A stretch of 64,000 nucleotides of DNA from contig MGKT01000006.1 in assembly GCA_001794755.1 (NCBI GenBank), positions 115,045 through 179,044 on the forward strand. The letters are read 5' to 3'. The notes under the pieces were generated by a model. That model was not told where the DNA came from, made no database searches, and worked only from the letters and a program-made list of their open reading frames with translations. Below are positions 1 through 21,213 of the stretch, piece by piece; the stretch's first letter is position 1, and the number at the start of each line of letters is the position of its first letter. The position numbers and the translations under genes were made by a program. The stretch comes from Candidatus Yanofskybacteria bacterium RIFCSPLOWO2_02_FULL_44_18 (lineage in GTDB: Bacteria; Patescibacteriota; Minisyncoccia; 2-02-FULL-40-12; GWA2-44-9).

Positions 1-956
1 ACTTCCTTATTTCCCCCGACGCCAGTCGTTACGATCGGTAAGCCGGCGCCCATGGCTTCCAGAATCTGATGAGAAAATCCCTCATAGCTCGTGTTCAGGA
101 CAAAAATATCCGCGGCGGCCAAATAATCAACCAGCTGTTCCTTGTTTTTTCGGCCAACGACATGAACCTTGCGCGACAATCCTAAATTTTTCACCATTGA
201 TTCAAGAATACTCTTTTCCGGGCCATCGCCGACGACTACTAGAGTAAAGAACTGATTGATTTCGAGCAACTTAGGCATTATTTTAATCAACATCTTGAAT
301 CCTTTCCACGGAACCAATCGCCCGACTGATAAAATAATATTACCGGCTATTCCTATTTTATTTTTCGCTTCTTGCCTATCAACAACATTAGGAACATCAA
401 CGCCGTTATATATGATTTTTATTTTTTCCAGCCTTACTCCCCAATCGCGGACGATTCCGGCCAAATATTCAGACGGGGCGATAACAGTATCTGCCTGACG
501 GCAGATTCGGCGTTGGATGCGGTCCAGGCGCCTGATTTTGCCTGTTTTGGGACTGTTCTGGAACTCGTCAATCAATAAATGAGTTTGGCCCCGATTCATC
601 GCCGTTTCCCAAGCGTAATCGCCGACAATTTTTACAACAAATTTTTTCTTATACACCCGAGCGGCAATAGAAGACGGCCAGCCCACGCTGACCGCATTCA
701 GGGCGAAGATAACATCATGGCCAGGCGTAAGCACAAAAAGTTTAACCAACAGTATTAAATGACGTAATCCTTTTGGCCAGATGCGTGAAACATAAACCAG
801 ATTAAAATCTTCTCTGGCATGTTTTTCTCCCCCGAATGTTAAAACCGTGACTTTGTGATTCCTAGACAAGTGCCGCGCCAATAACAGAGCGTACGTCGCC
901 GGACCACCTATTTCGGGAGGGAAAATACCTGTTGCTATTAATATTCTTTTTTTCAT
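1..956 (-). CDS. Glycosyltransferase family 4 (GT-B), C-terminally truncated by window edge
   Basis: Reverse-strand ATG at 954-956 overlaps stop of next gene (ATGA). N-term MKKRILIATGIFPPEIGGPATYALLLARHL...EGFSHQILEAMGAGLPIV is typical GT4; ORF runs off position 1. Confidence 0.7.
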   Translation of the reverse strand, partial: MKKRILIATGIFPPEIGGPATYALLLARHLSRNHKVTVLTFGGEKHAREDFNLVYVSRIWPKGLRHLILLVKLFVLTPGHDVIFALNAVSVGWPSSIAARVYKKKFVVKIVGDYAWETAMNRGQTHLLIDEFQNSPKTGKIRRLDRIQRRICRQADTVIAPSEYLAGIVRDWGVRLEKIKIIYNGVDVPNVVDRQEAKNKIGIAGNIILSVGRLVPWKGFKMLIKIMPKLLEINQFFTLVVVGDGPEKSILESMVKNLGLSRKVHVVGRKNKEQLVDYLAAADIFVLNTSYEGFSHQILEAMGAGLPIVTTGVGGNKE

Positions 957-1711
957 CTGAATATATTAAACCTGATTATGTGCCAAATGGCCGCCAGGCC
1001 GTCTTTCCAATTTATCTTTTTGCCTTCGTGATATGTACGGCCTTTATACGAAATTCCGACCTCATAAATCCGCAAGTTGTGCTGCGCGACTTGGGCTGTT
1101 AATTCCGGTTCTATGCCAAATCTTCTGGCTTTCAAATTCGGCAGAATTTTCTCTATCGCGTCCCGAGTAAACACTTTATAACCGGTTTCCATATCTGATA
1201 AATTCAATCCGGTCAGCATATTTGAAATAAACGTCACCAATTTATTGGCGATGTAGTGGGAAAAATAAAGAATGCGCCGCGGAAAAGGGGTTATAAACCG
1301 CGAACCATAGACGACATCGGCATCTCCGGCAAGAATCGGCCCGATAAGCAAGCGGTACTCATGGGGATCATATTCCAAATCCGCGTCTTGAATGATGATG
1401 ATGTCGCCCGTCGCTTCCTTAAATCCCCGCCTTATAGCCGTTCCTTTGCCTTGGTTTTTTCCATGAAAAATTATCTTGCAGCTGTTTTGATACTGTTCCA
1501 GAATTTCGCGGGTTCCGTCGTTTGATCCGTCATCAATAATAACAATTTCTTTTTCCAGCGGAAGTTCCGCGTCTTGAACCGCCGAAATAATCCTCGGAAG
1601 TGTTCTTTTCTCGTTAAACGCAGGAATAATAACGCTGATTTTGTTATACGCCATAAGTTTGGAATAATTCTTTATATTTTCTGGAAATAATCTCCCAGTC
1701 GTATTTTTCAT
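953..1711 (-). CDS. GT2 glycosyltransferase, polyprenol-phosphate mannose/glucose synthase-like (Dpm1/GtrB-like)
   Basis: VIIPAFNE...IIDDGSNDGT...DADL motifs of GT-A/GT2 dolichyl-phosphate mannosyltransferase family; probable true start at internal Met (about 1654). Confidence 0.85.
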   Translation of the reverse strand: MKNTTGRLFPENIKNYSKLMAYNKISVIIPAFNEKRTLPRIISAVQDAELPLEKEIVIIDDGSNDGTREILEQYQNSCKIIFHGKNQGKGTAIRRGFKEATGDIIIIQDADLEYDPHEYRLLIGPILAGDADVVYGSRFITPFPRRILYFSHYIANKLVTFISNMLTGLNLSDMETGYKVFTRDAIEKILPNLKARRFGIEPELTAQVAQHNLRIYEVGISYKGRTYHEGKKINWKDGLAAIWHIIRFNIFR

Positions 1712-2786
1712 TAATCAATTTCCGCGCGTTACTGACCATAAAATCTTTCAGAGTATTGTCTTTTAAAATCATATCTACTTTATCGGCAATGTCTTTGGAG
1801 TTGTTAACTTCACAGAAGAGCCCGGTTTCTCTGTTGATAATAAAATCTGTTATTCCGCCTGTTTTCGTACCGACAACCGGCAGCTTAGCGGCCATGGCCT
1901 CAAGAAAAGCCGTGCCTAAGCCTTCGGACAACGACGGTCGCACAAAAACATCGGCCGCAGCAAGATATTTCGGAAGATCGTCGTGCGTCACCTGCCCCGC
2001 AAATTTAATTCTGCCATCCAGTCCCAGTTCGTGCGATTTAAGTTTTAACGAGTCTCGAAGCGGCCCGTCGCCGATGATAAGTAATTTAACGTCATCTTCT
2101 AAGTACACTAGGGATTCAATTAAATCTTTCAATCCGTTTTTTGGCACCAGCCGTGAAACTGAGATAACGACCTTGTGATTATCGCCGTATCCGAGCTTCT
2201 GTCTTAAATCGTTATTTCTTAATATTGAAAATGCAGCAAAATCAACGCCGTTAGGAATGACCGATATTCGGGCTTTCAGATTTATATTCTTTGCGTATTC
2301 TTTCAGGTAATCACTGATGGTTATAATAGCGTCGGCTTTTATTATTATCAGGTTTCTGAAAAAATTAATCATTTTTCCTTGTTGTTTTAAATTTTTACCT
2401 TCCTGAATATTAAGAATAAAAGGAATGCGATTATTAAAAATCTTGAATAGCCATGCCGCACCGGCGGCTTGGGAGGCCTGGAGGGCAAAAACCATACCGT
2501 ATGAATTATTTTGAGATAATCTTAATGACTTAATGAAGGCAAAAAGAGGAAACAGTGCCTTCGGCATCAGTATTTTTAAAAAAGCGCCCTTGTTGCCGAT
2601 TCTAAATACATTTACATTTCCTATTCTTTCAAAGACGGGCAAAGATTTATCAAGATGCGCGGTGATAAGATCAAAATCAAATCCGTCAATGCGCTTCGTT
2701 ATTTCATGAAGGGCCAGTTCCGCGCCCCCGATATGTGGTAAGTAGTTGGAAGAGAACATTAAAATTCTCTTTGATTTATTGGCCAT
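1644..2786 (-). CDS. GT4 glycosyltransferase
   Basis: GGAELALHEI N-term and EGLGTAFLEAMAAKLPVVGT C-terminal GT-B motif. Confidence 0.85.
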   Translation of the reverse strand: MANKSKRILMFSSNYLPHIGGAELALHEITKRIDGFDFDLITAHLDKSLPVFERIGNVNVFRIGNKGAFLKILMPKALFPLFAFIKSLRLSQNNSYGMVFALQASQAAGAAWLFKIFNNRIPFILNIQEGKNLKQQGKMINFFRNLIIIKADAIITISDYLKEYAKNINLKARISVIPNGVDFAAFSILRNNDLRQKLGYGDNHKVVISVSRLVPKNGLKDLIESLVYLEDDVKLLIIGDGPLRDSLKLKSHELGLDGRIKFAGQVTHDDLPKYLAAADVFVRPSLSEGLGTAFLEAMAAKLPVVGTKTGGITDFIINRETGLFCEVNNSKDIADKVDMILKDNTLKDFMVSNARKLINEKYDWEIISRKYKELFQTYGV

Positions 2787-2789
2787 TTT

Positions 2790-3980
2790 GTGATAATTTT
2801 ACCACAAATGGAGCCAAAAATCAAGAAAAAGCGTATTTTATTCATTGTTACTCAATCGGAGATGGGTGGTGCTCAAAGGTTTCTGCTAAACACGATTTCA
2901 CGCTTGAATAAGGATATATATGAGATTGGCACGGCTGTCGGTTCTGATGGCGACGGCGAATTGTTAAATAAACTTGACGAACTTGGAATTGCATTCGAGA
3001 TAATTGAAAACCTAAAGCGGAATGCCAGCCCGATTAAAGATTTTTTCGCCGTATTTGAAACTCGCCGATTAATTATGCGCCATTCGCCGGATACTGTTTT
3101 TTTGTGCAGTTCAAAAGCCGGCTTCATCGGCTCTCTCGCTTGCCGAATGCCGACAATAATTAAAGACATTAAAGTAGTATATCGAATCGGCGGCTGGCAA
3201 TTTAATGATCCGCGCAAAGAATGGCAAAATAAAATTTATCTGATTCTGGAAAGATTAAGCGCTCATTGGAAAGATGTCATTATTCTTAATAACATCCATG
3301 ATTATAATCAGGCCGTAGAAAAGAAGATTCGCCCTCGAGAAAAAATTGAAATTATACACGGAGGAATCGATACGTATAAAATGAATTATCTACCCAGAGA
3401 GGAAGCCCGCCTAAAAATGCTTGAGCGAGCATCAAAACAATCGGGTAAAGTATTCCAGGCGGATTATATTGTTGGGACAATCGCCAATTTTTATCCGTCA
3501 AAGGGGCTTGGGCATCTATTAGACGCGGCACAATATTTAAAAGCCAAAATCAATGTTGTTTTCTTCGTCATTGGCGATGGGGAAAAAAGGATTGACTTGC
3601 AAACCGAGATTTTAAAAAAGGGCCTTGAAAAAAATGTGTTTCTTCTGGGGCGCATGCCGGAAGCCTACAAATTTTTAACCGGTTTTGATATTTTTGTCTC
3701 GCCTTCGTTGAAGGAAGGATTTCCTTGGAGCATATTGGAAGCGATGGCGGCAAAATTACCCGTTATCGCCACGCAAGTCGGCGGCGTTCCCGAAATAATC
3801 AAGAACGGCCATAACGGTTTTATAGTAAAGCCGGGTGACGGCAAAGCTATTGCTGAAAAAATAAAAGAACTGATTGCGAACGACCACTTGCGTCAGGAAT
3901 TGAGCATTAAATCACATCAAACCGTCCTGTTTGATTTCACGCTCGATAAAATGGTTAGCCGAATTGAGAGTCTGCTTTAG
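2790..3980 (+). CDS. GT4 glycosyltransferase
   Basis: EGFPWSILEAMAAKLPVIATQVGGVPEII motif; divergent from previous gene, with start codons only a few nt apart. Confidence 0.85.
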   Translation: MIILPQMEPKIKKKRILFIVTQSEMGGAQRFLLNTISRLNKDIYEIGTAVGSDGDGELLNKLDELGIAFEIIENLKRNASPIKDFFAVFETRRLIMRHSPDTVFLCSSKAGFIGSLACRMPTIIKDIKVVYRIGGWQFNDPRKEWQNKIYLILERLSAHWKDVIILNNIHDYNQAVEKKIRPREKIEIIHGGIDTYKMNYLPREEARLKMLERASKQSGKVFQADYIVGTIANFYPSKGLGHLLDAAQYLKAKINVVFFVIGDGEKRIDLQTEILKKGLEKNVFLLGRMPEAYKFLTGFDIFVSPSLKEGFPWSILEAMAAKLPVIATQVGGVPEIIKNGHNGFIVKPGDGKAIAEKIKELIANDHLRQELSIKSHQTVLFDFTLDKMVSRIESLL

Positions 3981-6211
3981 AGTTCTCTGCCCAGGCTTCT
4001 TACAAAAGCTCTGGCATCAGCTTCAAAAGACGGATCAACTTGAACCGCCCTGCGGGCCATTGCAACGGCATCATCTATCCGGCCAATATTTGCATAGGCC
4101 GTCGCCAGAGAAGCGAAATACTGAGCATTATTGGGATTAATTACTATAATTTTTTCGTAAATTCCGGCTATTTTGGAAAAATCCTTGTTGATAAGATAAA
4201 CATTTACTAGCCGCAAATATTCTTGTTCATTAGGACTGTAGCCACTACTCAGGGCTTTCTCCATATCTCTAAGACCTGACGCATCTCCGCTTTCAAATTT
4301 AGCTGCTCCAAGATACCAATAAGACAACACTGTTTCAGGATTTAAATCAACGGCTTTTTGAAAATATTCTATTGCTTTTTTATAGTCCTTCTTGTTTATA
4401 TAGGCTTGGGCGATTTCATAATAAGTCCTGATAAAAGTCGGGGAAAGTTCAAGCGCTTTTAGAGAATAGCTTAGCGCTTTATCATTGTAAAAAGATCCGG
4501 GATTGTCCTTGCCTAGTAAGATATTCAAGCGGGAAGCATAAAGATATGGCAAATAATCAATCGGATTTTCTTTAATGTTCTTTTCAACTTCAACAAGCGT
4601 AAATTCAAAAGCTCTCCGTACTTTTTCTTCCTTCAGGCTGGGACCGCCGCCGCCGACCAAATATTGGGCCAGGCGATGCCGGTACTCATACTTGCCGGGA
4701 ACATCGTAGGACAAGGATTCTTTATATTTTAAAAGAGCACCGTCAAAATCACCCGCCCAAGTTCTGACAATGGCTCTAGTGGTCGCGTAATTGGCCTTGG
4801 CCGGCAAAATATTTGTTTTATATATTAATACTGACATGAGAATCGCTAATATGATTCCAACCGTATTAACCAAAGATTTACTGGCCATAATCGGATTGGC
4901 AGCGCGTGCCTCTTCTTTTTCCGGGTTCAAATTCAGATAAGAGGTGAATCCCATGATAGTAAAGAAAACGATAAAATTGGCCGAGGTATCGAATATAAAA
5001 GAATTGTGGATTATATACGCGATAGTTGCCGGGATAAGGGCAATGCCATAAATAGAAAAATCATTATTTCTTAAAAGTTTCCGCAACGACCTGAAAATTG
5101 AGAAAAATATGTTTATGTATGCAAAAAAACCTATAATTCCCATGGTGACAAGAATTTCAACAAACATATTATGAGCCCTGTCAAAAAGTGTTTCTGAACC
5201 GGAGCCGACAAAAAATTTCGGATTAAAGTTTGTTGAAAAAGGAATATTGAAATTCTCCGGCCCCCAGCCTAGAAATATAGTTTTAGGATTTTCTCGCCAG
5301 CCCTTAAGACCGGCCTGCCAAGCCCAAAAACGAGTTTGGACAGTCGGTGAAGTGAGAGATAAGCTGGTAACCCTGCTAAGATATCCCGATTTTTTTACAA
5401 AAGAAGTATTGCCGAATAAAAGCGCAAAAGCAATGAATATTAACGCCGAGCTTATAAGAGTTTTGAATGCGATTTTTCCAATACCCGATTTTTTATACTT
5501 CATCCATAAAAACGCGAAAACCGTAAGCCCGACGGCATAACCCAAAAGTGATCCCCTGACAGCCGTCATCAAAACCGCAATAGAAGTAATCGCAAAAGCG
5601 GCCAGGTAATATTTTTTATATTTCTGGACCGACAAATACATCATCAGCGACAAAAATACTATTAACAGCTCATAGCCAGCGAATAGGGCTGGATTGCCGA
5701 TGGTACCGAATATTCTCTCGCGACCGCCCGAACCCACAAAAAATTCTATATTTGTTTTTTGTCCAAATCCGTAAAATGCTGATAGTACTCCTACAAATAC
5801 GGATAAGTTAAAAAGTTTTAACCAATATTCTTTTTTATTAAATACCGCGGTCAATATGATAAAAAATAGAAAATAATGCGCGAAAGTCCAAAGACCGCCC
5901 ATTCTTTCAAGTCCACCCCAAAAACTCGGGTATTGCAAAACGCTCGTTAAAGTTGTCAAAGAAAAGGCTGCTACAAACAAAAAGAAGGCCCAAAATATTT
6001 TATCGCGGCGGGGCAGATACGATCTGTTCTTTAAAATTAAAATTATATAAGCTACCGCCAGAATTTCAACTAAACTCCTGAAAACTAGCACTTTTCCAAA
6101 GTGAAAAGGAGAAATGAAATCTTTCCAAATAACAAGCGGCATAAATGCCGTTAGATAGATGCCAAAGCGCAAAAATTTTACCAGACCCGATTCTTTATTG
6201 GTTTGCTTCAT
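3977..6211 (-). CDS. Wzy_C (O-antigen ligase / O-oligosaccharyltransferase-like) polytopic membrane protein with C-terminal TPR repeats
   Basis: About 12 TM N-terminal region with large loop; C-terminal 250 aa are TPR-like (AQAYINKKDYKKAIEYFQKAVDLNP...). Confidence 0.7.
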   Translation of the reverse strand: MKQTNKESGLVKFLRFGIYLTAFMPLVIWKDFISPFHFGKVLVFRSLVEILAVAYIILILKNRSYLPRRDKIFWAFFLFVAAFSLTTLTSVLQYPSFWGGLERMGGLWTFAHYFLFFIILTAVFNKKEYWLKLFNLSVFVGVLSAFYGFGQKTNIEFFVGSGGRERIFGTIGNPALFAGYELLIVFLSLMMYLSVQKYKKYYLAAFAITSIAVLMTAVRGSLLGYAVGLTVFAFLWMKYKKSGIGKIAFKTLISSALIFIAFALLFGNTSFVKKSGYLSRVTSLSLTSPTVQTRFWAWQAGLKGWRENPKTIFLGWGPENFNIPFSTNFNPKFFVGSGSETLFDRAHNMFVEILVTMGIIGFFAYINIFFSIFRSLRKLLRNNDFSIYGIALIPATIAYIIHNSFIFDTSANFIVFFTIMGFTSYLNLNPEKEEARAANPIMASKSLVNTVGIILAILMSVLIYKTNILPAKANYATTRAIVRTWAGDFDGALLKYKESLSYDVPGKYEYRHRLAQYLVGGGGPSLKEEKVRRAFEFTLVEVEKNIKENPIDYLPYLYASRLNILLGKDNPGSFYNDKALSYSLKALELSPTFIRTYYEIAQAYINKKDYKKAIEYFQKAVDLNPETVLSYWYLGAAKFESGDASGLRDMEKALSSGYSPNEQEYLRLVNVYLINKDFSKIAGIYEKIIVINPNNAQYFASLATAYANIGRIDDAVAMARRAVQVDPSFEADARAFVRSLGREL

Positions 6212-6310
6212 ATATTAGATATGATAACAGAAAACCCAAAAATTTAGCAATCTTAGTAGTTGCAAGGATGGGTCAAAGTTGGCGACAAATAATATCAGAA
6301 GTTAAGGGGA

Positions 6311-6760
6311 TTAGCTTTTAAGAAATTGGAGGTGGTTTTCGATAAATTCTTTCTGTTCGGGGATCATATTCTTGGGCATCTCTTTAAATATTTTAATATC
6401 AGAGGCATTATTGTTTGGGCGCATATTTACATCCTTAGTTCCACATAAAACCGGAATGCTTATTGTCCAGCCAAATCCACGCTCCGCCTGTTCGCTTGGA
6501 TATTCAATATATCCAAGCATTTCTATTATTTTTACAGATATGCCGAGTTCATCTGAAGCTATTCGTTTCACCGCATCTTCAACTCGCTCCTTGTATTGAA
6601 GTGTTGCGCCTGGAAAATGCCACTGATTACTCCAAGTAGACAGTTTTCTTAGGGTTAAAACGATTCCTTTATCTGTTTGCACTATTAGATCAACACACAA
6701 TCTGGGGACCTTCGAATATATGTCATTAAATTCTTCTTTGGACAATAGCTTATCATTCAT
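6311..6760 (-). CDS. NUDIX hydrolase (GDP-mannose mannosyl hydrolase-like)
   Basis: Nudix-box-like QYKERVEDAVKRIASDELGISV; size about 149 aa. Confidence 0.65.
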   Translation of the reverse strand: MNDKLLSKEEFNDIYSKVPRLCVDLIVQTDKGIVLTLRKLSTWSNQWHFPGATLQYKERVEDAVKRIASDELGISVKIIEMLGYIEYPSEQAERGFGWTISIPVLCGTKDVNMRPNNNASDIKIFKEMPKNMIPEQKEFIENHLQFLKS

Positions 6761-6904
6761 AATTGTATATAAATTTAATCACTTAATTGGATTATTGTCG
6801 ATTAATAAAGTCATCATCAATCTAAAACCCGGGTTTTCCTTTGTATCAAAAACGATAAGACCCGCGGGATCTCTGTCTTATCGACGAGCTCTCCGCGGGC
6901 CACA

Positions 6905-7168
6905 CTACCAGATTGGAAGCATGATGTCTTCCATGATCCGAGCGATAGTCTGATTTTCTCCCACTATTCTCGCGATAGAAGTAAGTTGTTGTTGTACGAT
7001 GCTCTCTTGCCGTTGGCGTTCGGTGGTGAGATTACCAAAAGGTTTGAGCGCCTCAATTCCATCAATAATTTTTTTTACCTCTTTCCCGATTTGCGGGTTT
7101 TCCTTCGCAATCTTTTGAAGCCACGCAATGTGGCTATCAAGTTTTTCGTGTCGGTTATTGGCCATCAT
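6905..7168 (-). CDS. Hypothetical small protein
   Basis: 87-aa ORF, no recognisable motif. Confidence 0.3.
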   Translation of the reverse strand: MMANNRHEKLDSHIAWLQKIAKENPQIGKEVKKIIDGIEALKPFGNLTTERQRQESIVQQQLTSIARIVGENQTIARIMEDIMLPIW

Positions 7169-7235
7169 TGCCTCCTGAGTAAAATATTACCACCTTTCGG
7201 TGGCAATGTCAACTATTCAATATCTACCTGCATTT

Positions 7236-8492: not shown

Positions 8493-8564
8493 TTTTTAAG
8501 GTATACTAACTCAAAAATAAGAGACCCGCAAACGGGCCCCTTGTTTTTAAAAAAATTCAAATTA

Positions 8565-9794: not shown

Positions 9795-9819
9795 GGTTTA
9801 ATTTTGTTTGATGACGAGC

Positions 9820-10221: not shown

Positions 10222-10232
10222 GTTCTAAATAA

Positions 10233-13055: not shown

Positions 13056-14818
13056 TATTTTTTCAACCGAGAAGCAAGATCTTGAAGCAGTTTGCCTATT
13101 TCTGGATCCGAGCTGGAAAATTCAAGGCCCTTTTGAACATCTACCAGTGCCTTTTCTCTATTATTCAAGGCGAGATAAACCAGCGCTGAATTATAGTAAA
13201 CACGTGGATTATTGGGAATAATCATCTTGAGTTTCTCTATGTTATCAGCCGCTTTAGTCAAATCTCCGCGCTGGGCATATATAAATGCTAAATTTTGATA
13301 CGGATAATAAAAGGCCGGATTTATCTCTATCGCCCTATCAAATAATTTAACAGCCTCGTCAATTTTTCCTCTTGACTGGAGAATCGTCCCCAAGTTGTAA
13401 TAAGGCTGGGCAAAAGCATCACCCGATTCGATTGCTTTTCGGTAATAAAATTCTGCTTCCCCAATATTCCCTTGATTATAATATGTGTTGCCGAGATTGT
13501 TATTTATCCTCGTACTGGACGGCTCGTATCTCAAAATGTCTTTGTAAAAATCAACAGGTTTCCCCCATAAAATATTTCTTTTAACAGACTGGAAAGAAAA
13601 GAATAATAAATAAACTGCCAGCGCAATTACCAGTAAAGTCCGGCCCTGAATTTTTAATAACAGTGCATTCCTATTATCAAATATCTGAATCAGATAAAAT
13701 GAAACAATAAACCAGAACCCAATCATCGGTAGATACAGCCAGTGTTCATATATCAATGCGTTAATCGGGGTAATTCCGGAAACCGGACCAAGACCGATAA
13801 AAAATACCCCCCAGCCAAACAGCCAGATACGAAAATAAGTAATGTTTTTCTTGTAAAAAAAATATCCTATGCCGAGAATACCTGCCGTTATCCCCGCTCC
13901 CAGCCAGACAGGCCATTGGAATAAGGAGGTGTTAACGGTCATGCTTCTTTCCATATGCAGTCCTATCGGAACAAGAAGAAGTTTGAAATAATCAACCAAG
14001 ACATGCATGAAAGTGAAAATTCTGTAGAGCAGATTTTCCGAATATGCGTTAGGGGCGGAATAGAAATTCAGCGTATTTTGGAAATTCAATACTGTCAGAC
14101 GCAAAATTCCGTATATAAATACAACCGCAAAATACGGCCATAATTTTATCAGGCCTTGCTTTATAGACCTTATAAATCTCCCCTCCGATCTAAAAGAAAC
14201 ATAATAGACAAGAGCTAATAATGGAAAGATAATTGCTGTTTCCCGGCTCAAGAGGGCCAGGATCAAAGACAATAATGATAAAAATAAATATTTTGTCCCG
14301 GCCTTATCGAAGAATAAAAGAGAAAGGAGCATAAAAAATACGACAAGTAAGTCGCCTCGGCCGGAGATATACGTCACGGCTTCCGTCTGGAGAGGATGAA
14401 TGCTGAAAATAAGAGCCGTCAAAAAAGCGACAGCCGTTTTCTGGCTTTTGGAAATGCCTAATTCCAATCCGCGCAGCAGAAAAAAAACAAGAATCGCGTT
14501 GGCAATATGGATGAAATTGCTTGTCAGATGCCAAAATAGCGGTTGGGCTCCGGCTACAATATAATTAAGGGCAAATGTTAGAAACAGAAAGGGGCGATAG
14601 TAGTTGCTCTGAAGTCCGACACCGGCCAAAACATCATGGGTAAACCAAAACTTAATATTTGTCCACGAAAACTCATGGACAAATATATTATTGATTATCC
14701 AGTCAGAGTCATCCCAAAAAAGCTTATTGTTGAGATTAAAGAAATAAACAAAACCCGCGGCAATCATTAAAACGGCAATCGGAAGCCAAATATCCTTTTT
14801 TAACGCAAATTTATTCAT
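13055..14818 (-). CDS. GT-C-like membrane protein with C-terminal TPR repeats (paralog of 11286..13055)
   Basis: N-terminal LFWDDSDWIINN motif, multi-TM, TPR tail (GNTYYNQGNIGEAEFYYRKAIE...); TAATG overlap with downstream paralog. Confidence 0.65.
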   Translation of the reverse strand: MNKFALKKDIWLPIAVLMIAAGFVYFFNLNNKLFWDDSDWIINNIFVHEFSWTNIKFWFTHDVLAGVGLQSNYYRPFLFLTFALNYIVAGAQPLFWHLTSNFIHIANAILVFFLLRGLELGISKSQKTAVAFLTALIFSIHPLQTEAVTYISGRGDLLVVFFMLLSLLFFDKAGTKYLFLSLLSLILALLSRETAIIFPLLALVYYVSFRSEGRFIRSIKQGLIKLWPYFAVVFIYGILRLTVLNFQNTLNFYSAPNAYSENLLYRIFTFMHVLVDYFKLLLVPIGLHMERSMTVNTSLFQWPVWLGAGITAGILGIGYFFYKKNITYFRIWLFGWGVFFIGLGPVSGITPINALIYEHWLYLPMIGFWFIVSFYLIQIFDNRNALLLKIQGRTLLVIALAVYLLFFSFQSVKRNILWGKPVDFYKDILRYEPSSTRINNNLGNTYYNQGNIGEAEFYYRKAIESGDAFAQPYYNLGTILQSRGKIDEAVKLFDRAIEINPAFYYPYQNLAFIYAQRGDLTKAADNIEKLKMIIPNNPRVYYNSALVYLALNNREKALVDVQKGLEFSSSDPEIGKLLQDLASRLKK

Positions 14819-16808
14819 TAAAATATTTGGATAGAAATTCTCGGGCCTGTATGTTGCCTTTATCTCTTTTTAGAGCTTCTCTAAACATAAATCTGGCCTC
14901 GTCAAATTTTCCCAAATTCATATAAACACCGCCTAAAATGAAGTAATAGCGGCTGTCTTTTAGACCCAAGTCGATCGCCTTTTTTATGTTTTCAGCCGCT
15001 AATTTTTGTAGTTCTTTATCCGCGTAGGAAGCATAAGCCAATCCTTTGTGAAGATACGGGTACGGATTATCGGAATCAATCTTTATCGCTTCATCGGCAA
15101 AGTAAACCACCGGTTCCAGCCATTTAATATTATACAAAAATCGGGACAAATCAACGTTCAAATCAATTCTGTTTTTGTTGGAGTCCCTAATATGGTCTGT
15201 AATTTTGTTTGCGGCGTTTATATTTGTAATCAAAAATTTTGAAATAATATCTCCGTTTTTGATATTATTTTTAACTATAATAATTACGTCTTCATTTATA
15301 TAGGCGGTCTTCCAGTCGGGATTTTTGACAATACTTTCCAAAAAATCCTGTCCCCATGGTGTGGCATCGGCATGACCGAAAAAAATAAAATTAATATTAT
15401 ACTTGTCAGAAAATTCCTCCCATTTTTTTTCATCTTCCTGCATCGGCTTGTAAATTTCGCTGAAAAATTTTACCGAATATGCCTCCGGCCTGTTGTCAAC
15501 AAAAACTTTTTCATCGGGATAAAGATTTCCTATCAAATATCCGCCGATATCAAAGTTATTAAACATCGGCCCCTCTATTCCATTATCTTTCACAAATGTC
15601 ACCGCCCGCTCCAGTCCATTAGGCACGGATAATCCGAATGCCTTGGAAGAATTTATGTGCTTATAAAACCAATTGTTGGAAACAAGAAAAATTAGCAAAA
15701 TCAAAAAGACAGAGACTGTTATTTTAAGAACGGGGTTTATCCGGCTTGATTTTTCTAGTCTGAATCTGTCTTTAATTTTGCCAAAAATATCATTCAAAAT
15801 TATCGCCATGACCGGAAAGGAAGAAAGGGCATATAGCGGCAGATTGCGGAGCATTCTAAATCCGGCGTAGACAAAAAAAATGGAAATTATGATTTCAAAT
15901 ATTCTATTTTTTAATTTTTTCCCGGTTAAAATAAAAACTATAATCAGAGCCGATGCAGAAAGTTTAAATGTAAAAATAGACAAATTAAAATTGAAAAAAT
16001 CGGCCAGAAAAAACAAGGTTTGGTTTTCGGCAATGGTATAGCCATACTCATTCAATATATTAAAGGGTAAAATCGCGCCCTGAAATCCCTCGGGGTTGAT
16101 TAACGTGGCCAAGCTGGTCAATGCTCCAATTAGGGTTATTCTGGCAAGATTTGATTTTTTTGGAGATTCAGAATCGGACGCTGAAGTAAATAAACAATCA
16201 AGAAAAAAAGATAAAATCAGAAACGGGCCGATAAAAAAATAAATATGAAAATTCACCCACAAAATTTCCAGTACGGGCAAAAACCATAGCCAAAAATATT
16301 TATTTTCATACTTTGCTTTGAAAAGCGCGAACAGAAAAAAAGAAAGAATTGCAAAGCTAAATATCTCAGGCCGAACCTCGGTTCGTTCAATAAAAATAAA
16401 AACTGAAAGCAAAAACGATATTAAAAGCGGCCAGAAACTGGAATATTTTTTTATACCAAAAAATAGCAGTAAAAAAACACCAAAAACCAAAAGTACTTTA
16501 ACCAAAATGAGGCCAGTGAAACCGCCAAAGTTGAAAATGTGATAAAAGATGATCTCACTTAACCAATGGTGGTTTGTGAACGGAGAATTCGGCTCGGTAA
16601 AAGAGAATAGATTTGTTTTCGGAATTTCTTTTGTCTGCCAAATAATCTCCCCGACTTTCAAATGCCGGCCGATATCCTGGCCGATGGAATTGAAGCTGTG
16701 AACAGATAAAACAAAAAGCAGAGCAAAGGCGAGAACAAATAAATAATTATATTTAAGGAAGAACCACAACCGTTTTGCCATCGCATTGTTTCTCGAAAAC
16801 CTTAACAT
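14811..16808 (-). CDS. Polytopic membrane protein with C-terminal TPR repeats (third GT-C-like/TPR member of the tandem set)
   Basis: More than 10 TM segments, large soluble domain, TPR-like C-terminus; 8-nt overlap with next gene. Confidence 0.6.
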   Translation of the reverse strand: MLRFSRNNAMAKRLWFFLKYNYLFVLAFALLFVLSVHSFNSIGQDIGRHLKVGEIIWQTKEIPKTNLFSFTEPNSPFTNHHWLSEIIFYHIFNFGGFTGLILVKVLLVFGVFLLLFFGIKKYSSFWPLLISFLLSVFIFIERTEVRPEIFSFAILSFFLFALFKAKYENKYFWLWFLPVLEILWVNFHIYFFIGPFLILSFFLDCLFTSASDSESPKKSNLARITLIGALTSLATLINPEGFQGAILPFNILNEYGYTIAENQTLFFLADFFNFNLSIFTFKLSASALIIVFILTGKKLKNRIFEIIISIFFVYAGFRMLRNLPLYALSSFPVMAIILNDIFGKIKDRFRLEKSSRINPVLKITVSVFLILLIFLVSNNWFYKHINSSKAFGLSVPNGLERAVTFVKDNGIEGPMFNNFDIGGYLIGNLYPDEKVFVDNRPEAYSVKFFSEIYKPMQEDEKKWEEFSDKYNINFIFFGHADATPWGQDFLESIVKNPDWKTAYINEDVIIIVKNNIKNGDIISKFLITNINAANKITDHIRDSNKNRIDLNVDLSRFLYNIKWLEPVVYFADEAIKIDSDNPYPYLHKGLAYASYADKELQKLAAENIKKAIDLGLKDSRYYFILGGVYMNLGKFDEARFMFREALKRDKGNIQAREFLSKYFNE

Positions 16809-17367
16809 AACCTCCCGCAGTCACAAATTTTCCCTTACCATCAACCAGTCGGCCATATTGAATCTTCGCAGTCAGTTCATATCTTTTGCTCTTGGGATTG
16901 TCCGGTAATACTACGCTTAATAAACTTTCTCCATTTGGAATGGCAATGTTGCTGAATACGTTAGGGCCTACCGATATGCTTTCGTTAGGTGTTACTGTCC
17001 ATAAGACGTTTCTGCCAGGATGGTCAATCCCTTTATAGGTAAAGAGTGCGTCTTGATTGTCGTAGGTATTATGATCCAGGAATTTAATTTCGCCTTTTAA
17101 TGTGCAAGATGCGTCAGCCAATAGCAGATTCCAAGGAACTGGTTCGCCGTAGAATGTAGTCCTGCCATCGCCGGTCGGAAGCGGAACTTTTGAAGTTCTC
17201 GGCGAAGATGACGGAGATACCGACGGGGAAACTCCGATTGATTCTTGCGGTGATGATGTTGGTGTCAATGTTTCTAAGGCAACATCGTCTCCGTCCTTAG
17301 AAAAATAGAATACTGACGATACTAGTATGGCCACTAAAACTACAGGAATGAATATTTTTTTAATCAT
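16753..17367 (-). CDS. Secreted hypothetical protein with S/P-rich linker
   Basis: N-terminal TM/signal; SSPQESIGVSPSVSPSSSPRTS linker. Confidence 0.5.
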   Translation of the reverse strand: MIKKIFIPVVLVAILVSSVFYFSKDGDDVALETLTPTSSPQESIGVSPSVSPSSSPRTSKVPLPTGDGRTTFYGEPVPWNLLLADASCTLKGEIKFLDHNTYDNQDALFTYKGIDHPGRNVLWTVTPNESISVGPNVFSNIAIPNGESLLSVVLPDNPKSKRYELTAKIQYGRLVDGKGKFVTAGGYVKVFEKQCDGKTVVVLP

Positions 17368-17402
17368 CCAATGATGCTATCAAAATATATCAATTATGTA
17401 AA

Positions 17403-17438
17403 CCAAAACCCCCGCTCAAGGCGGGGGTTTTGTCTTCC
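17403..17438 (-). terminator. Rho-independent terminator (bidirectional hairpin) after the 1245-aa gene
   Basis: cccccgc-tcaa-gcggggg stem flanked by A-run/T-run. Confidence 0.7.
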
Positions 17439-17475
17439 CTAATATCCCTTAGAAATCAGGACATCTGGAATGAGA

Positions 17476-20400
17476 TTACCTCTGGAATGTCGGACCGTAC
17501 AACGGAACACTTCTCAAGACACCGGTTGTTGAAGCCTGGTCCAAAGAATTGGTGTTTCCTGCATAGTCAGCCACCCAGTTAATCAATCCTGCTATATCAT
17601 CCTGTAATGTGACCTGGAAGTAGTCCGGAGCCCTGCCGGTCGTTCCGGCGTTGCCATAGTGCTGCGTCGGATTGTCCAGACGGATGCTGAAGGTTCTTGT
17701 TCCACCAGCTGGAATTTCTATATCCTGACTTCCAAAGTTGAAGGATATAGAAGCGTTCTTACCAGGCTGTACACCGGAGGCCGCGGCCGCCATGCTGATG
17801 GTTTGGCTTGTGTCAGCCGCACCAGGCGTACCGATGCTTCTCAATGTACCCGTATCAATCACGGTTCCGGATTCATCCAATATCGAGAAGGTGGTGCTGG
17901 TCGTGGTATTTACCGATGACTGACCGGAAGCCACAATCTCAAAGTTTATAGAACCAGAACTGTTGTGTTCATTGTCAAATCTCAAGTTGGAGCCGGGCGC
18001 ACCCATGGCTGTTACCGAGAATTTGAACACGATTGGTGTACCGAGCAAGCTGTAAGGCGACGAAAGCGCGACCTGTTCAATCTTCGGGAAGACCCGATAG
18101 ACATACTGGTCAAACGCGCCGGCCACATCAGCGATGTTCGAACCTGTGCCGTCAATGACAGTTCCTGAACCGTCGCCGACTGCTCTAAAGCCGTTAACAT
18201 AGCTGTTGTTGAACGAATCCATAAGATCCAAGGAGAAGAATACATCTTGCGGAGTGCTCGCAATTTGAGTCGCACCTTCCGTCTTGGTCTTCATGTTGGC
18301 GTTCACGGTAATATCCAAGCTGCCGTCCTGCGGTACATAAGGCCGGTTGGCATCGGTTGACTCCCAATTGAAGTTTACCGAAGCTCCCTGACCGAATGAC
18401 TGAGTTCTGGTGATGGTACTACCAGCCTTGTTCTTGTAGGACAAGATTACTTCTTTGACGTTCGCGGCCGCGTCTGCCTTTTCAGCGGCGGTCGAAGCAG
18501 CAATCGTCAGTTTTTCTATGTACTGGCCTTCATCCGTCGCGCTTATCCTGAACTTGGATATCGGCGCGTTGGTTTGGCCCCAGTAGACAGCACCTTTAAC
18601 CGGGCTATCAGCCGAGGTGGCCAATGTCATCGAACCGGAATTCTTGACCGTCAAAACTTGGGTCGGGCTGGTCGTGCCGTTTACGCCTGCGCTAGCTGCG
18701 CCCGGATTCACAGTGTTGGAATCAGAATCCAATGCCGTAACGTCTCCGGTGGCAGCGATATCAAAGGCATAAAGGTCTCCTGCCGTACCCGATGCTTGGT
18801 TATTGGACAAATCAACTCTAACCAGCATCGTTTTGGATGTGCCGGCCGGAATATTCCAATCCAGATTACCGAAGGTCATCGTACCAGTTCCAGAAGTACC
18901 TAATGAATTGTTGGTTACTTTTTCTGAACCGGCAATCAATGCGCCAGTTCCAGATTCATATAGCTGAACCTTGGCCATGGCGCTGGAAACCGAGACCGAG
19001 TTACCGCCATCTTCGACACCCTCATCAAAGGTTGTCGTATCAGCGGCATAACCGGTTATCTTAATCGTGGTCACTTTAAGTGCTGAAGCTTGGCTGGCGG
19101 CAAATGTGATGCCAACCGCGTCAACGTCCTTTGTACCTCGAATCTTTGTCTGGTCACTTGGCGTACCGGCCAAGCTCAAAGTCAAAGACGAAGCGGAAAG
19201 GGTAATGTTCGGACCGTTAATATCAGCTCGAGGGACAATATCAGCCGCTGCGACTGAAGTGTTTGTGCCCGAGTATTTCATTACGGTTACATCACCGGCA
19301 TCATCCGAGTAATCATCAAGAATTGCTCTGATGATACTTCCGTCAATTAATTCACCGGTAACATTGGCTGTGTTTATATCAGCCGTAACCTTGAAGTTAT
19401 ATGTCGTACCGGCCATTAAATCGAGGACATCGGTAAATGATTCCTGAACACCGCCTCCAGCCGGACAGCTGGTTGTGTCGTCGGCATGATCAAATGCTGT
19501 GGCATCCTTCGGACCGATGACAACAGTGTTGGTATCCTCGTTCCAGACTTTGAAGTCTGTAACGTCATCCCAATCTCCTTCGGTGGTTTCAGTATCATAT
19601 GTTCCGTCACCAGCTTGGTCAGCACAGAGAGTAAACTCTGTCTTCTTAACCTCAATGTTGCTGGCGGCAGTCACTGAATACCTCAAGAGAGTAACATCAG
19701 TGGCCGTGGTGCCGACAGTGCTGGCATTAGGACCATTGAATACTAATGTCAATGCTCCACCCTGAAGAGTCAAAGTCGTCGCTTCATCGGCGGTATCAAG
19801 GGTATTGGTGCCCTCAGCCATACCTTGGCCGTATTGGTCCCCAACAGCTAAAACATCTGAATTGTTCTCAAAATAGAGATCAATCGTTTCATCTTTCTTT
19901 CCGCCCACATCTCCATAGACCTTGAATGTGGCATTACCGCCTTTGGCGATAGAATAGCCGGAACCGAGGTCAAATACGAGATAGCTGTCGGAAGTTACCG
20001 AACCGGACCATTCCATGGCACCGGTTTTTATCTTGACATTGGTCAAATCGGCCGGTTTCAAGTTTCCGCCGTTTAACAGAGTCAGGCGCTTAACTGAAGC
20101 ACCTTCGGTATTGGCCGTTAACTTGAATTCCGCGAGCTGGGCTTGCTTCTGACCCACGGTTGGGTTTGAAAGCGAACCGACTTCAGCGACATCAATTGTT
20201 CCGGACGAGGTTCCTGAAGTCGTAAAGTTATTGCCGCTTAACGGTGTACCTGAAATAGCGGCTCCACCCGTTGCAACCATGCCCGTCAACTGAAGATAGT
20301 TAACGTTGCCGGCCGTATTTGCGGAAGCCATATCAGCCACGATCGAAAAATCTTTTGTTCCATTGACTGCTCCATCAGTGGAGTCCAGCAAGAACGTCAC

Positions 20401-21213
20401 CTCACCGGTCGAAGATGAGAACGACTTGCCTGAAGTCAATCTGCTGGCGCCTTGATATACGAAAACGTTATCAAAGTCGTCTGTCTGACCAGCACCCAAT
20501 CTCTTCACAGTTAAGGTGTTAACCGTGCCGCTGCCGTTGACTCTCACTCGCAGCATCTCAACGCCAACTGCGTTTAGAGTTATTGTCTGCGCGCCTGGGT
20601 TATTTGGAGCCAAGCTTACGGACAATGGGCCGGACGGGGTCGGAGTCGGTGATGTCCCCGGTGTTCGAGAGTAGTTCGGAACCTGGTTTACTGAAGTGTA
20701 GTTTGAACCCTTCGCGTACCAGTTGAACTCGTTGTTGTTGATGCAGAATACTTTTTTGAAGAAATTCGCGTCATCAGCAACTGCTTGAGCGCCGGTGGTG
20801 TTTACCCAGTGAAGGACACCTGTGTCCTCGCCTGTAGTTTCAACACCATATACTTTCTGATCTCCAGTTTCACAGTTTCGGAAAAGTCCTGAAGTCGGAA
20901 ATGCGTCGCGCGCTGTGGCGCTGACATTTTTGACACTCGCAAAACCTCCGAGATGACCGTAGAAATTGAAGATGGCCGGATTCAAGAACAATCTCTTGTA
21001 TCCCTGCTCGTTGACGATGTATATATCCGGATCGTCAGAACCGGCTGCGCTGATCGTATCGCCTTCTCTCAGGCCATAGTCAGAGGGCATTGCCGCACTC
21101 GCCGATGGGACGAATACCGCAAACCCAGCCAACGACAATATTGTCGTTGCCGCAGTTAGAGTCGCGATTGCTCTTTTGAGCAAATCTCGATTCCTGCGTG
21201 ATAAACTATTCAT
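17476..21213 (-). CDS. Large (1245 aa) secreted surface/adhesin-like protein, T/S/G/A-rich beta-rich repeats
   Basis: Signal peptide; N-terminal approx. 130-aa module about 75% identical to the one in 8565..9794; TPSPTPTPSGP linker; long low-complexity beta-rich body. Confidence 0.7.
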   Translation of the reverse strand: MNSLSRRNRDLLKRAIATLTAATTILSLAGFAVFVPSASAAMPSDYGLREGDTISAAGSDDPDIYIVNEQGYKRLFLNPAIFNFYGHLGGFASVKNVSATARDAFPTSGLFRNCETGDQKVYGVETTGEDTGVLHWVNTTGAQAVADDANFFKKVFCINNNEFNWYAKGSNYTSVNQVPNYSRTPGTSPTPTPSGPLSVSLAPNNPGAQTITLNAVGVEMLRVRVNGSGTVNTLTVKRLGAGQTDDFDNVFVYQGASRLTSGKSFSSSTGEVTFLLDSTDGAVNGTKDFSIVADMASANTAGNVNYLQLTGMVATGGAAISGTPLSGNNFTTSGTSSGTIDVAEVGSLSNPTVGQKQAQLAEFKLTANTEGASVKRLTLLNGGNLKPADLTNVKIKTGAMEWSGSVTSDSYLVFDLGSGYSIAKGGNATFKVYGDVGGKKDETIDLYFENNSDVLAVGDQYGQGMAEGTNTLDTADEATTLTLQGGALTLVFNGPNASTVGTTATDVTLLRYSVTAASNIEVKKTEFTLCADQAGDGTYDTETTEGDWDDVTDFKVWNEDTNTVVIGPKDATAFDHADDTTSCPAGGGVQESFTDVLDLMAGTTYNFKVTADINTANVTGELIDGSIIRAILDDYSDDAGDVTVMKYSGTNTSVAAADIVPRADINGPNITLSASSLTLSLAGTPSDQTKIRGTKDVDAVGITFAASQASALKVTTIKITGYAADTTTFDEGVEDGGNSVSVSSAMAKVQLYESGTGALIAGSEKVTNNSLGTSGTGTMTFGNLDWNIPAGTSKTMLVRVDLSNNQASGTAGDLYAFDIAATGDVTALDSDSNTVNPGAASAGVNGTTSPTQVLTVKNSGSMTLATSADSPVKGAVYWGQTNAPISKFRISATDEGQYIEKLTIAASTAAEKADAAANVKEVILSYKNKAGSTITRTQSFGQGASVNFNWESTDANRPYVPQDGSLDITVNANMKTKTEGATQIASTPQDVFFSLDLMDSFNNSYVNGFRAVGDGSGTVIDGTGSNIADVAGAFDQYVYRVFPKIEQVALSSPYSLLGTPIVFKFSVTAMGAPGSNLRFDNEHNSSGSINFEIVASGQSSVNTTTSTTFSILDESGTVIDTGTLRSIGTPGAADTSQTISMAAAASGVQPGKNASISFNFGSQDIEIPAGGTRTFSIRLDNPTQHYGNAGTTGRAPDYFQVTLQDDIAGLINWVADYAGNTNSLDQASTTGVLRSVPLYGPTFQR

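Follow-up and report, generated by a model that had tools for sequence, protein, structure and literature searches.

A conserved gene cluster of Candidatus Yanofskybacteria that joins TMTC-like and unannotated GT-C enzymes to surface-protein genes: a candidate system for protein glycosylation

The Patescibacteria, or bacteria of the candidate phyla radiation (CPR), are tiny and mostly uncultured episymbionts whose cell surface mediates attachment to the host, and to our knowledge the construction of that surface is almost wholly obscure. The locus described here raises the question whether such an organism encodes a dedicated machinery for the glycosylation of its surface proteins. It is located on contig MGKT01000006.1 of Candidatus Yanofskybacteria bacterium RIFCSPLOWO2_02_FULL_44_18, one of a group of groundwater bacteria, in a stretch of 64,000 nt (the window, to which all positions refer), where it occupies positions 1..23406 and is encoded almost entirely on the minus strand. 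An earlier reading of the same DNA, referred to as the original prediction, had proposed that glycosyltransferases (GTs) and secreted proteins rich in Ser, Thr and Pro form a protein O-glycosylation neighbourhood of a CPR bacterium. Every open reading frame (ORF) that it named was found at its coordinates, and the assignment to the CPR was borne out by proteins deposited for Candidatus Yanofskybacteria bacterium GW2011_GWA1_44 that are 100% identical to two of the enzymes (A and C, see below). The cluster is a conserved CPR assembly, new as such, of two TMTC-like enzymes, a Wzy_C protein fused to tetratricopeptide repeats (TPRs) and a third membrane glycosyltransferase of the GT-C class, situated beside a gene for a giant surface protein. 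We favour, with about even confidence, its interpretation as a locus for extracytoplasmic glycosylation in a monoderm CPR bacterium, the end product being O-glycosylated surface protein.

Three consecutive genes of the cluster encode membrane proteins that end in TPRs and are called A, B and C (short names, coordinates and matches of all genes are given in Table 1). All three had originally been described as TMTC/PMT_2-like proteins with an N-terminal FxxDD motif. TMTC1-4 are protein O-mannosyltransferases of the eukaryotic endoplasmic reticulum and belong to the Pfam family TMTC_DUF1736 (PMC7801869). This family, PF08409, represents the loop between transmembrane (TM) segments 7 and 8 and has a gathering score of 27 bits, which was exceeded by protein A both at full length (33.7 bits) and with its TM domain alone (35.2 bits); A also carries the motif FVFDD. 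Protein B, which aligns with A over 563 aa at 25% identity (E 3e-18) and is its divergent paralogue, remained below the threshold with 16.9-17.8 bits and retains WDD. The TMTC part of the description consequently stands for A and, at sub-threshold level, for B, and it fails for C, which has no DD motif, no Pfam match in its membrane part and no relationship to A. The PMT_2 part had to be abandoned, as PF13231 and PF02366 (PMT_2 and PMT) matched neither A, B nor C, even at E<=10 with the TM domains.

The residues that were described for TMTC proteins comprise a DD pair in loop 1, a basic residue followed by YRP in the same loop, an acidic residue preceding TM4 together with a Lys that follows TM5, and the Arg of an AERV motif before TM10 (Eisenhaber et al., PMC7801869). 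Among 41 aligned homologues of A, D30 D31, R66 P67, H125 P126 E130, E174 and E337 are invariant and R338 is near-invariant. Judged by motif and position, these residues, which in A stand in the contexts K61...Y65 R66 P67, K173 E174 and G336 E337 R338, appear to fall at the TMTC catalytic and donor-binding places. Twenty-nine orthologues of B (45-67% identity) keep W35 D36 D37, Y73 R75 P76 and H141 P142 E146, together with a B-specific loop motif (P284 G286 H288 M289 R291), D36 D37 being invariant in 30 sequences; R192 E193 is present and E358 H359 takes the place of Glu-Arg, again matched by motif and position only. In view of this conservation, B looks like an active enzyme with a specificity different from that of A. 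The AlphaFold2 (AF2) model of A (pLDDT 85.6) displays, according to DSSP, 11 TM helices before residue 390, which are followed by the TPR helices, and since the N-terminus is Lys-rich and thus expected inside, the inferred topology places the TPR array outside the membrane. The data therefore support putative TMTC catalytic motifs and a predicted extracytoplasmic TPR array in both A and B.

Like TMTC1-4, A and B have DD in loop 1 and are predicted to be composed of an 11-TM GT-C domain and a non-cytoplasmic TPR array; YRP, HPxHTEAV and Glu-Arg before TM10 may be further common traits. They differ in being bacterial (CPR) and, at about 590 aa and 5-6 TPRs, in their smaller length; in the TM7/8 loop A has DY and B has GLHMER where TMTC proteins have DW, the loop-5 Arg is a His in B, the donor would be a bacterial polyprenyl-phosphate-sugar, and the acceptors would not be cadherins. 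The parts of the system are thus of known kinds: full-length prokaryotic TMTC-like proteins have been noted before, though never studied, and databases already label some of these proteins as 'DUF1736' or 'protein O-mannosyl-transferase'. For the TMTC proteins themselves, mannosyltransferase activity had not been directly demonstrated as of 2021 (PMC7801869). A bacterial counterpart in architecture is TfpW of Pseudomonas aeruginosa, a pilin O-arabinosyltransferase that is encoded next to pilA, uses decaprenyl-phosphate-arabinofuranose as donor, and combines an 11-TM GT-C domain having an essential DDx in loop 1 with a periplasmic TPR domain (bioRxiv 10.1101/2020.04.19.049825). The likeness, which is drawn from the published description of TfpW, lies in the 11-TM GT-C domain, the DD-type motif in loop 1, the extracytoplasmic C-terminal TPRs and the position of the gene beside candidate acceptors; the difference is that no pilin gene is present here. 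A pilin-glycosylation system in the style of TfpW or PglL was considered and rejected, no pilin-like N-terminus being found in the translated proteins of the cluster.

Protein C belongs to a different and so far unannotated family. Its membrane part matched no Pfam family, even at E<=10, and no NCBIfam family; BLASTP showed no relationship to A, and hhalign gave a probability of 0.6% for the C family against the A/B family. Against PglB of Campylobacter lari (sequence verified against 3rce), and with a deeper alignment of C, the hhalign probability was 0.8%; in both comparisons only an Arg-containing helix was aligned. Sequence and profile searches of the PDB with full-length A and C and with one of the alignments returned TPR proteins only, and the TPR-trimmed profiles of the A and C families matched no solved glycosyltransferase. 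The AF2 model of C is a confident one (pLDDT 90.9, pTM 0.86). In a Foldseek search of the PDB only GT-C enzymes ranked ahead of the TPR matches, namely yeast and human STT3, AglB (TM-score 0.53), DPY19 and PglB, with AftA lower, at E values from 3e-7 (STT3) to about 1e-3 (AftA). The matches to oligosaccharyltransferases (OSTs) and DPY19 (8age_A, 2.8e-7; 7e9s_A, TMq 0.53; 6s7t_A; 7zlg_A, which is DPY19; 6gxc_A) have E values of 3e-7 to 1e-4 and TM-scores of 0.41-0.53, and four of the five kinds of enzyme that match the fold (STT3, AglB, DPY19 and PglB) act on proteins.

The model of C comprises about 11 TM segments (counted from DSSP and the positive-inside rule), an alpha/beta domain of 150 aa and about four TPRs. 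Across 116 sequences D45, E148, H188, E261 and D438 are invariant and R321 is near-invariant. With the loops read off the model helices, the long and highly conserved loop 1 holds the invariant D45 and G47, a single Asp and no DD; the short loop 2 holds invariant R142, P147 and E148; H188 lies at loop 3; the long, partly disordered loop 4 (residues 250-280 have low pLDDT) contains E261; and R321 precedes TM10 in loop 5. The alpha/beta domain carries a near-invariant NN[FY]DxG (N417 N418 F419 D420 x G422) as well as D438. As placed on the model, these residues appear to have the layout of a generic GT-C active site, and as a lead from the sequence, [ST]-I-x-E261 and F-D420-x-G may recall the TIXE and WWDYG motifs of PglB. 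C resembles STT3, AglB, PglB and DPY19, its best solved structural matches, in being a membrane GT-C with a C-terminal extracytoplasmic domain and with conserved acidic residues in predicted external loops. It differs from them by the lack of a sequence relationship, by about 11 TM segments against the 13 of GT66, by the absence of a literal WWDXG, and by additional C-terminal TPRs. On its predicted fold C is a GT-C enzyme and not a member of GT66, and membership in either the TMTC-like proteins or GT66 was rejected on the hhalign probabilities of 0.6% and 0.8%. The family, with its predicted OST/DPY19-like fold, is very large: among 1.84 billion representatives of 50%-identity clusters, 25,566 hits were obtained at E<=1e-3, of which 4,520 reached E<=1e-30. 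Its genome hits are mostly from Patescibacteria, with distant members in metagenome-assembled genomes (MAGs) of Nitrospirota, Omnitrophica, Planctomycetota, Acidobacteria and Bacteroidales.

The conservation of the cluster was assessed from the surroundings of A homologues and from the relatives of C, scanned at one genome per species (80 loci); all loci, numbered with the prefix L, were then searched with the proteins of the window. About 30 related genomes of Parcubacteria, with proteins that are 45-67% identical, contain the gene set. In L005-L007, where the homologues of A are 53-58% identical, the order is a protein of about 1200 aa, a protein of about 200 aa, C (not always present), B, A, a variable segment, GSDH and Wzy_C-TPR, followed by a GT4 on the opposite strand, a GT4, the GT2 and one or more GT4s. 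Elsewhere order and orientation have been reshuffled, with C located between a GT4 and the Wzy_C gene in L026 and L030, and yet p1245, p204, B, often A, GSDH, Wzy_C, the GT4s, the GT2, C and p332-p133-p409 stay together. Among the 30 loci with close homologues of C, 24 also hold A or B and 22 hold an orthologue of p1245; among the 50 loci with distant homologues, A or B was found in only six. The most persistent pairing is that of B with p1245 and p204, A often being missing: the order p1245-p204-(C)-B is syntenic in more than 20 loci, p204 always comes after the p1245 gene, and in rearranged loci, too, it is with these two genes and not with the GT4 block that B stays linked. The p133 gene always accompanies those of p332 and p409, the trio shifting as a unit in L026, L030 and L075, and a gene for a lamin-tail domain (LTD) protein is found upstream of the p1245 gene in L007, L009, L012, L014, L015 and L019. 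Conservation through such rearrangements is good evidence that the cluster is one functional unit in this lineage, and the gene-order comparison suggested with the original prediction came out in its favour, though with the genes shuffled.

In L006 a true PMT/PMT_2 GT-C gene (11854..13464, 536 aa) and a 719-aa protein replace p332-p133-p409 downstream of the A homologue, which looks like a modular exchange of GT-C enzymes at that position. Many of the compared loci (L008, L010, L011, L014, L046, L048 and others) come from MAGs entitled 'uncultured Candidatus Saccharibacteria' or 'uncultured Gammaproteobacteria' and have Yanofskybacteria- or Parcubacteria-like genes, so that these labels look unreliable.

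The genes of the cluster are also closely packed. Direct reading of the sequence confirmed the junctions proposed for the GT-C-TPR genes, TAATG between B and A and an overlap of 8 nt (ATGAATAA) between C and B, a start/stop arrangement typical of translational coupling; the p204 gene in turn overlaps the start of C. The p204-C-B-A genes overlap or abut, p332-p133-p409 follow, and a terminator-like hairpin lies in the 72-nt gap 3' of p409. Because of these overlaps and the hairpin, p204-C-B-A-p332-p133-p409 plausibly constitute a single transcription unit. Promoter and terminator scans showed no overall enrichment compared with shuffled sequences, and only two intergenic hairpins were used, with caution.

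A lipid-linked donor could be supplied by the GT2, in which the original prediction had seen a polyprenol-phosphate-sugar synthase-like enzyme. This is borne out by its match to PF00535 (1e-36) and by its closest solved relatives in a PDB search, the Pyrococcus dolichyl-phosphate-mannose (Dol-P-Man) synthase 5mlz (2.7e-20), ArnC (2e-16) and GtrB (1.6e-10). AglJ is the top NCBIfam match (1.4e-34; 119.8 bits against an equivalog cutoff of 325 bits); ArnC, PpgS and Dol-P-hexose transferase follow, all below their equivalog cutoffs, with other GT2 types (PgaC, PgfS, GpgS) scoring in between. The translation shows a DxD motif within QDADLEYDP. A hydropathy scan revealed no TM segment, so that the C-terminal TM anchoring of the GtrB/ArnC subclass is missing, and the enzyme may fit the anchor-less DPM1/Ppm1-D2 subclass. 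On its sequence it is best described as a putative DPM1-like polyprenyl-phosphate-sugar synthase. The only pointer to the nature of the sugar is the adjacent NUDIX hydrolase, whose weak match to GDP-mannose mannosyl hydrolase (NF011963, 2e-8, 34 bits against a cutoff of 146) is a mere hint; its gene is absent from the related clusters L005-L007. The 87-aa ORF at 6905..7168 was considered as a small lipid-sugar flippase and rejected, its translation being hydrophilic.

The three GT4s that had been predicted were all recovered. That at 1644..2786 has BshA, TuaC and PEP-CTERM glycosyltransferases as best NCBIfam matches, all below cutoff, the divergent orientation of that at 2790..3980 is kept in L005-L007, and the complete version of the truncated one, in L088, carries PF00534/PF13439. 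L088 also shows what lies beyond the start of the window (10699..20683): the rest of the truncated GT4, three genes of the Glycos_transf_1 type, a further GT4, an NAD-dependent epimerase/dehydratase, a transketolase split into N and C halves and, encoded on the other strand, a radical-SAM enzyme of the B12-binding kind. This gene set suggests an unusual, modified sugar, and so many cytoplasmic genes for glycan building would imply that an oligo- or polysaccharide is put together on a lipid carrier, in addition to any single sugars. A second glycan locus at the other end of the window encodes, besides a MurJ/MOP flippase and a WbaP-like phosphoglycosyl transferase, a 775-aa DUF4012 protein (PF13196), a Band_7 protein and two GT4s (PF00534 twice). 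This locus is without a Wzy protein, the cluster at 1-23 kb has Wzy_C and neither a priming transferase nor a flippase, and a search of the 24-54 kb in between for either of these found housekeeping genes only; the second locus may supply priming and flipping to the cluster.

The claim of a Wzy_C domain fused to TPRs was confirmed: the protein matches PF04932 over residues 204-366 (64.8 bits against a cutoff of 31.7) and has its TPRs at residues 577-730, with only weak NCBIfam matches to IctB, TfpM and Wzy. Its proposed kinship with PglL/PilO-type O-oligosaccharyltransferases is upheld by the Wzy_C domain, the C-terminal TPRs and the nearby surface-protein genes, and not by the PglL_A motif, which separates PglL from WaaL ligases (PMC3643930). 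PilO likewise lacks PF15864 (PglL_A), so the activity would still be open to a protein without it. The Wzy_C family also includes polymerases and ligases, and several reactions are therefore compatible with the sequence; the protein could be an O-oligosaccharyltransferase or, equally, an enzyme that polymerises or ligates a wall polymer, as TuaE does. The combination of Wzy_C with C-terminal TPRs is that of PglL and of the surface-layer (S-layer) O-oligosaccharyltransferase WsfB (PMC2943079), and as with WsfB and WsaB the gene resides in a GT-rich cluster near a gene for a large surface protein; unlike the slg clusters of WsfB and WsaB, the present one contains no priming transferase, Wzx or ABC exporter. 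The Wzy_C-TPR gene is syntenic in L005-L008, L013, L026 and L030, with surface-protein genes within 2-11 kb of it.

The proteins interleaved with these enzymes include candidate acceptors. A single hydrophobic segment at the N-terminus is common to all non-enzyme proteins of the cluster, and the highest fraction of Ser, Thr and Pro in any 25-residue window is 0.84 in p409 (residues 149-173), 0.80 in the LTD protein, 0.72 in p204 (residues 35-59), 0.64 in p1245 and 0.48 in p332. The Ser/Thr/Pro linkers ascribed to these proteins were thus evident in p409 and p204 and moderate in p1245; p332 is rich in Ser and Thr overall (24%) and has no Pro-rich linker. The interleaving itself is syntenic or apparently reflects co-transcription across the genomes, in agreement with the original prediction. 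On account of the N-terminal segment and the linkers, p1245, p204, p409 and the LTD protein, in which long Thr/Pro/Ser linkers join the two lamin-tail domains, are candidate acceptors. Protein p1245 had no match in Pfam, NCBIfam or by sequence in the PDB, and it is the main candidate for an acceptor or S-layer-like protein. The 627 nt upstream of its gene (21214..21840) are without a convincing ORF and without an Rfam family at the gathering threshold; an extended leader or promoter, of the sort that precedes highly expressed surface-layer genes, may lie there.

Protein p409 has an anchor at its N-terminus, then a Gly run and a Thr/Ser/Pro linker; a 136-aa domain comes next, and SH3_3 forms the C-terminal part. 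The 136-aa domain (residues 200-335) is shared with p1245 (residues 48-183) at 77% identity and is 60-85% identical in many Parcubacteria proteins, which makes it more conserved than the enzymes of the cluster. It belongs to no Pfam family, its homologues being short or partial proteins unannotated beyond SH3_3, and it could serve as a recognition module for the TPR enzymes or as a wall-binding module. Proteins p332, in which an internal duplication is visible, and p133 matched no Pfam or NCBIfam family. GSDH, a PQQ-type beta-propeller with an N-terminal hydrophobic segment, is a constant member between the TMTC-like genes and Wzy_C-TPR. Similar linkers are present, behind an N-terminal hydrophobic segment, in exported proteins elsewhere in the window, an FKBP prolyl isomerase (24021..24521, minus strand), a Peptidase_C39_2-like protein (39870..40634, plus strand) and a 192-aa protein (40771..41349, plus strand). 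Given these linkers outside the cluster, the targets of glycosylation may be genome-wide, by analogy recalling the glycosylated disordered regions of streptococcal PrsA.

From the domains, motifs, folds, overlaps and synteny described above, the following route may be proposed for donor, sugar, acceptors and division of labour. On the cytoplasmic side of the membrane the GT2 would take one sugar from its nucleotide-linked form and attach it to polyprenyl phosphate; the lipid-phosphate-sugar would be flipped and used outside by A and B, whose active sites would be formed by the DD of external loop 1, YRP, HPxxTEAV and the long TM7-TM8 loop. With their TPR arrays outside the membrane, both enzymes would hold secreted proteins and glycosylate them at Ser/Thr, the best candidates being the co-encoded p1245, p204, p409 and LTD protein. 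C, with its acidic residues in loops 1, 2 and 4 and its Arg in loop 5, would probably also be a transferase outside the membrane, adding another sugar or serving another acceptor; being usually stand-alone outside the Yanofskybacteria lineage, it probably has a general envelope role. In parallel, the GT4s (three in the window, eight GT4-type genes in the full cluster) would build an oligosaccharide on a polyprenyl-diphosphate carrier, and Wzy_C-TPR would either pass it whole to protein, in the manner of WsfB and PglL, or polymerise or ligate it; the acceptor may be the same proteins.

The two-stage principle is known from streptococci, where GtrB and the GT-C enzyme PgtC2 glucosylate Ser/Thr-rich disordered regions of PrsA and other proteins (PMC11092751), and Thr/Pro linkers are glycosylated by the GT39 enzyme Cbes_1864, whose gene adjoins that of its acceptor CelA (PMC6151902). 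As in these systems and in Ppm1/Pmt of actinobacteria, a GT2 making a lipid-phosphate-monosaccharide would be combined with GT-C transfer to Ser/Thr-rich linkers, and the GT-C genes lie beside an acceptor gene, here a candidate one. In contrast to them, the GT-Cs are TMTC-like or of a new family and neither GT39 nor YfhO, three of them stand in tandem and all are fused to TPRs, and the GT2 is without the C-terminal TM hairpin of GtrB/ArnC. The idea of a surface-protein glycosylation system thus gains from the GT2, the motifs of A and B, the predicted GT-C fold of C and the synteny, and loses the TMTC/PMT-like nature of C; that of a lipid-linked donor used by GT-C enzymes is partly supported, with the amendment that the upstream genes point to a complex glycan and not only to single-sugar protein mannosylation.

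Several observations weigh against surface-protein glycosylation as the function of the locus, and most of them fit a cell-wall glycopolymer instead. The five further GT4-type genes upstream, with the radical-SAM enzyme, the epimerase and the split transketolase look like a polysaccharide locus; GT4 and GT2 genes match the teichuronic-acid enzymes TuaC and TuaG in NCBIfam; PF15864 is not among the 17 Pfam hits of Wzy_C-TPR at E<=0.01; TPR domains occur also in proteins of polysaccharide export and assembly; and no priming phosphoglycosyl transferase or GtrA-type flippase is encoded inside the cluster, the nearest being 33-41 kb away. The structure search with the model of A was swamped by TPR matches and does not allow a comparison with solved GT-C folds. 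In distant genomes, C is flanked by unrelated housekeeping genes and stands alone, except in two Bacteroidales MAGs with a small GT2 directly upstream of it. On the wall hypothesis, the GT4s, the GT2 and a TuaE-like Wzy_C-TPR would make a secondary wall polysaccharide or teichuronic-acid-like polymer, which A, B and C would decorate with single sugars from polyprenyl-phosphate-sugar as YfhO, GtrC and Emb/Aft do, and the surface proteins would be tenants anchored via the 136-aa domain or SH3_3, like S-layer genes beside genes for secondary cell wall polymers. The WbaP-like transferase, the MurJ/MOP flippase and DUF4012 in the same window would suit this, as would the SH3_3 domain of p409 and the far higher conservation of the 136-aa domain, which is expected of a wall-binding module. 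We consider this explanation possible and rather doubtful, since those members of the TMTC family on which experiments have been done all act on proteins (PMC7801869), B is tied to p1245/p204 and not to the GT4 block, p204-C-B-A-p332-p133-p409 are apparently transcribed as one unit, and Wzy_C plus TPR is the architecture of WsfB.

C alone might also act as an OST-like enzyme, transferring the GT4-built glycan en bloc to many secreted proteins while A and B add separate O-linked monosaccharides. OST catalytic subunits are the top Foldseek matches (E 3e-7, TM 0.44-0.53), the C-terminal alpha/beta domain with NN[FY]DxG at a helix start and E261 in the [ST]-I-x-E of a floppy loop would agree with this, and the family has a very large membership, usually encoded by solitary genes. 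Nevertheless, C had no STT3 Pfam match at E<=10, the PDB profile search found no OST, and the hhalign probability with the verified PglB, the number of TM segments and the missing literal WWDXG speak against it, so that we regard this explanation as unlikely. That the GT and secreted-protein genes are no functional unit, being neighbours by chance or through shared expression, appears very improbable. The NUDIX gene, the p332-p133-p409 trio, A and C are each missing in individual genomes, and C is unlinked in distant lineages; the core set, however, has not been dispersed by the inversions and reshuffling seen in about 30 divergent genomes, which argues against chance, and its genes overlap in an arrangement typical of translational coupling. 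O-glycosylation of surface proteins therefore stays the interpretation that we prefer.

Two further features of the window lie outside the cluster. A match to the Rfam group I intron family RF00028 (33069..33264, plus strand; 50.5 bits against a gathering score of 50) is located 3' of a Trp/Tyr-tRNA-synthetase gene and overlaps a small ORF (33059..33442), no rRNA or tRNA host gene being evident. At 42942..44820 (minus strand) a Peptidase_S24 (LexA/UmuD-like) gene is immediately followed by that of a Y-family DNA polymerase (IMS); the two resemble a mutagenesis pair of the SOS type, here in the reduced genome of a CPR bacterium.

Table 1. Genes and other features of the putative glycosylation cluster and of the second glycan locus (positions in the 64,000-nt window)
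Feature	Position	Strand	Evidence and remarks
GT4 glycosyltransferase, cut by the window start	3..950	-	N-terminal ~316 aa of 380 aa; translation begins MKKRILIATG
GT2, polyprenyl-phosphate-sugar-synthase-like	953..1711	-	PF00535; probable true start 1654 (233 aa)
GT4, cytoplasmic GT-B	1644..2786	-	PF00534 2e-43
GT4	2790..3980	+	PF00534 1.2e-40; sole plus-strand gene of the cluster
Wzy_C-TPR, polytopic membrane protein	3977..6211	-	PF04932 9.5e-18 and TPRs
NUDIX hydrolase	6311..6760	-	PF00293 8e-10
Hydrophilic hypothetical protein, 87 aa	6905..7168	-	called as 86 aa in L001/L088
GSDH, membrane-anchored or secreted beta-propeller, glucose/sorbosone dehydrogenase- or TrAA12-like	7236..8492	-	PF22807 9e-13, PF07995 1e-9
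Terminator-like hairpin	8519..8542	-	10-bp stem with 6 GC pairs, then ATTTTT; consensus match only
p409, secreted 409-aa protein	8565..9794	-	SH3_3 PF08239 2e-13
p133, secreted 133-aa protein	9820..10221	-	single N-terminal TM segment; family-less
p332, secreted 332-aa protein, Ser/Thr/Gly/Ala-rich	10233..11231	-	signal-like N-terminus
A, TMTC-like GT-C with TPRs	11286..13055	-	PF08409 above cutoff
B, divergent TMTC-like paralogue of A with TPRs	13055..14818	-	BLASTP-level similarity to A
C, unannotated GT-C family with TPRs	14811..16808	-	predicted fold; gene callers put the start at 16781
p204, anchored 204-aa protein	16753..17367	-	Ser/Pro linker, Cys-containing C-terminal domain
p1245, secreted 1245-aa surface protein	17476..21213	-	TPGTSPTPTPSGP linker, Thr/Ser/Gly/Ala-rich body
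LTD protein, secreted, two lamin-tail domains	21841..23406	-	PF00932 5e-31, two copies
Second glycan locus	54512..63976	-	MurJ/MOP flippase PF03023 6e-74; WbaP-like phosphoglycosyl transferase PF02397 6e-60

Our literature searches found no study of protein glycosylation in Patescibacteria. The locus names players that can be tested, namely a lipid-sugar synthase, two TMTC-like enzymes, a Wzy_C-TPR protein, a new GT-C family and a set of candidate acceptors; the family of C in itself represents a large gap in present domain databases. There is a slim chance that this family is a distant cousin of the OSTs, a general protein glycosyltransferase and a near-core trait of the CPR beside the TMTC-like enzymes, in which case OST-like protein glycosylation would be widespread in the CPR and would act in Yanofskybacteria alongside two TMTC-like enzymes on an S-layer-like protein. 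If confirmed, the cluster would be the first defined protein-glycosylation system in the CPR, and A and B would provide bacterial, easily expressed models for the TMTC O-mannosyltransferases.

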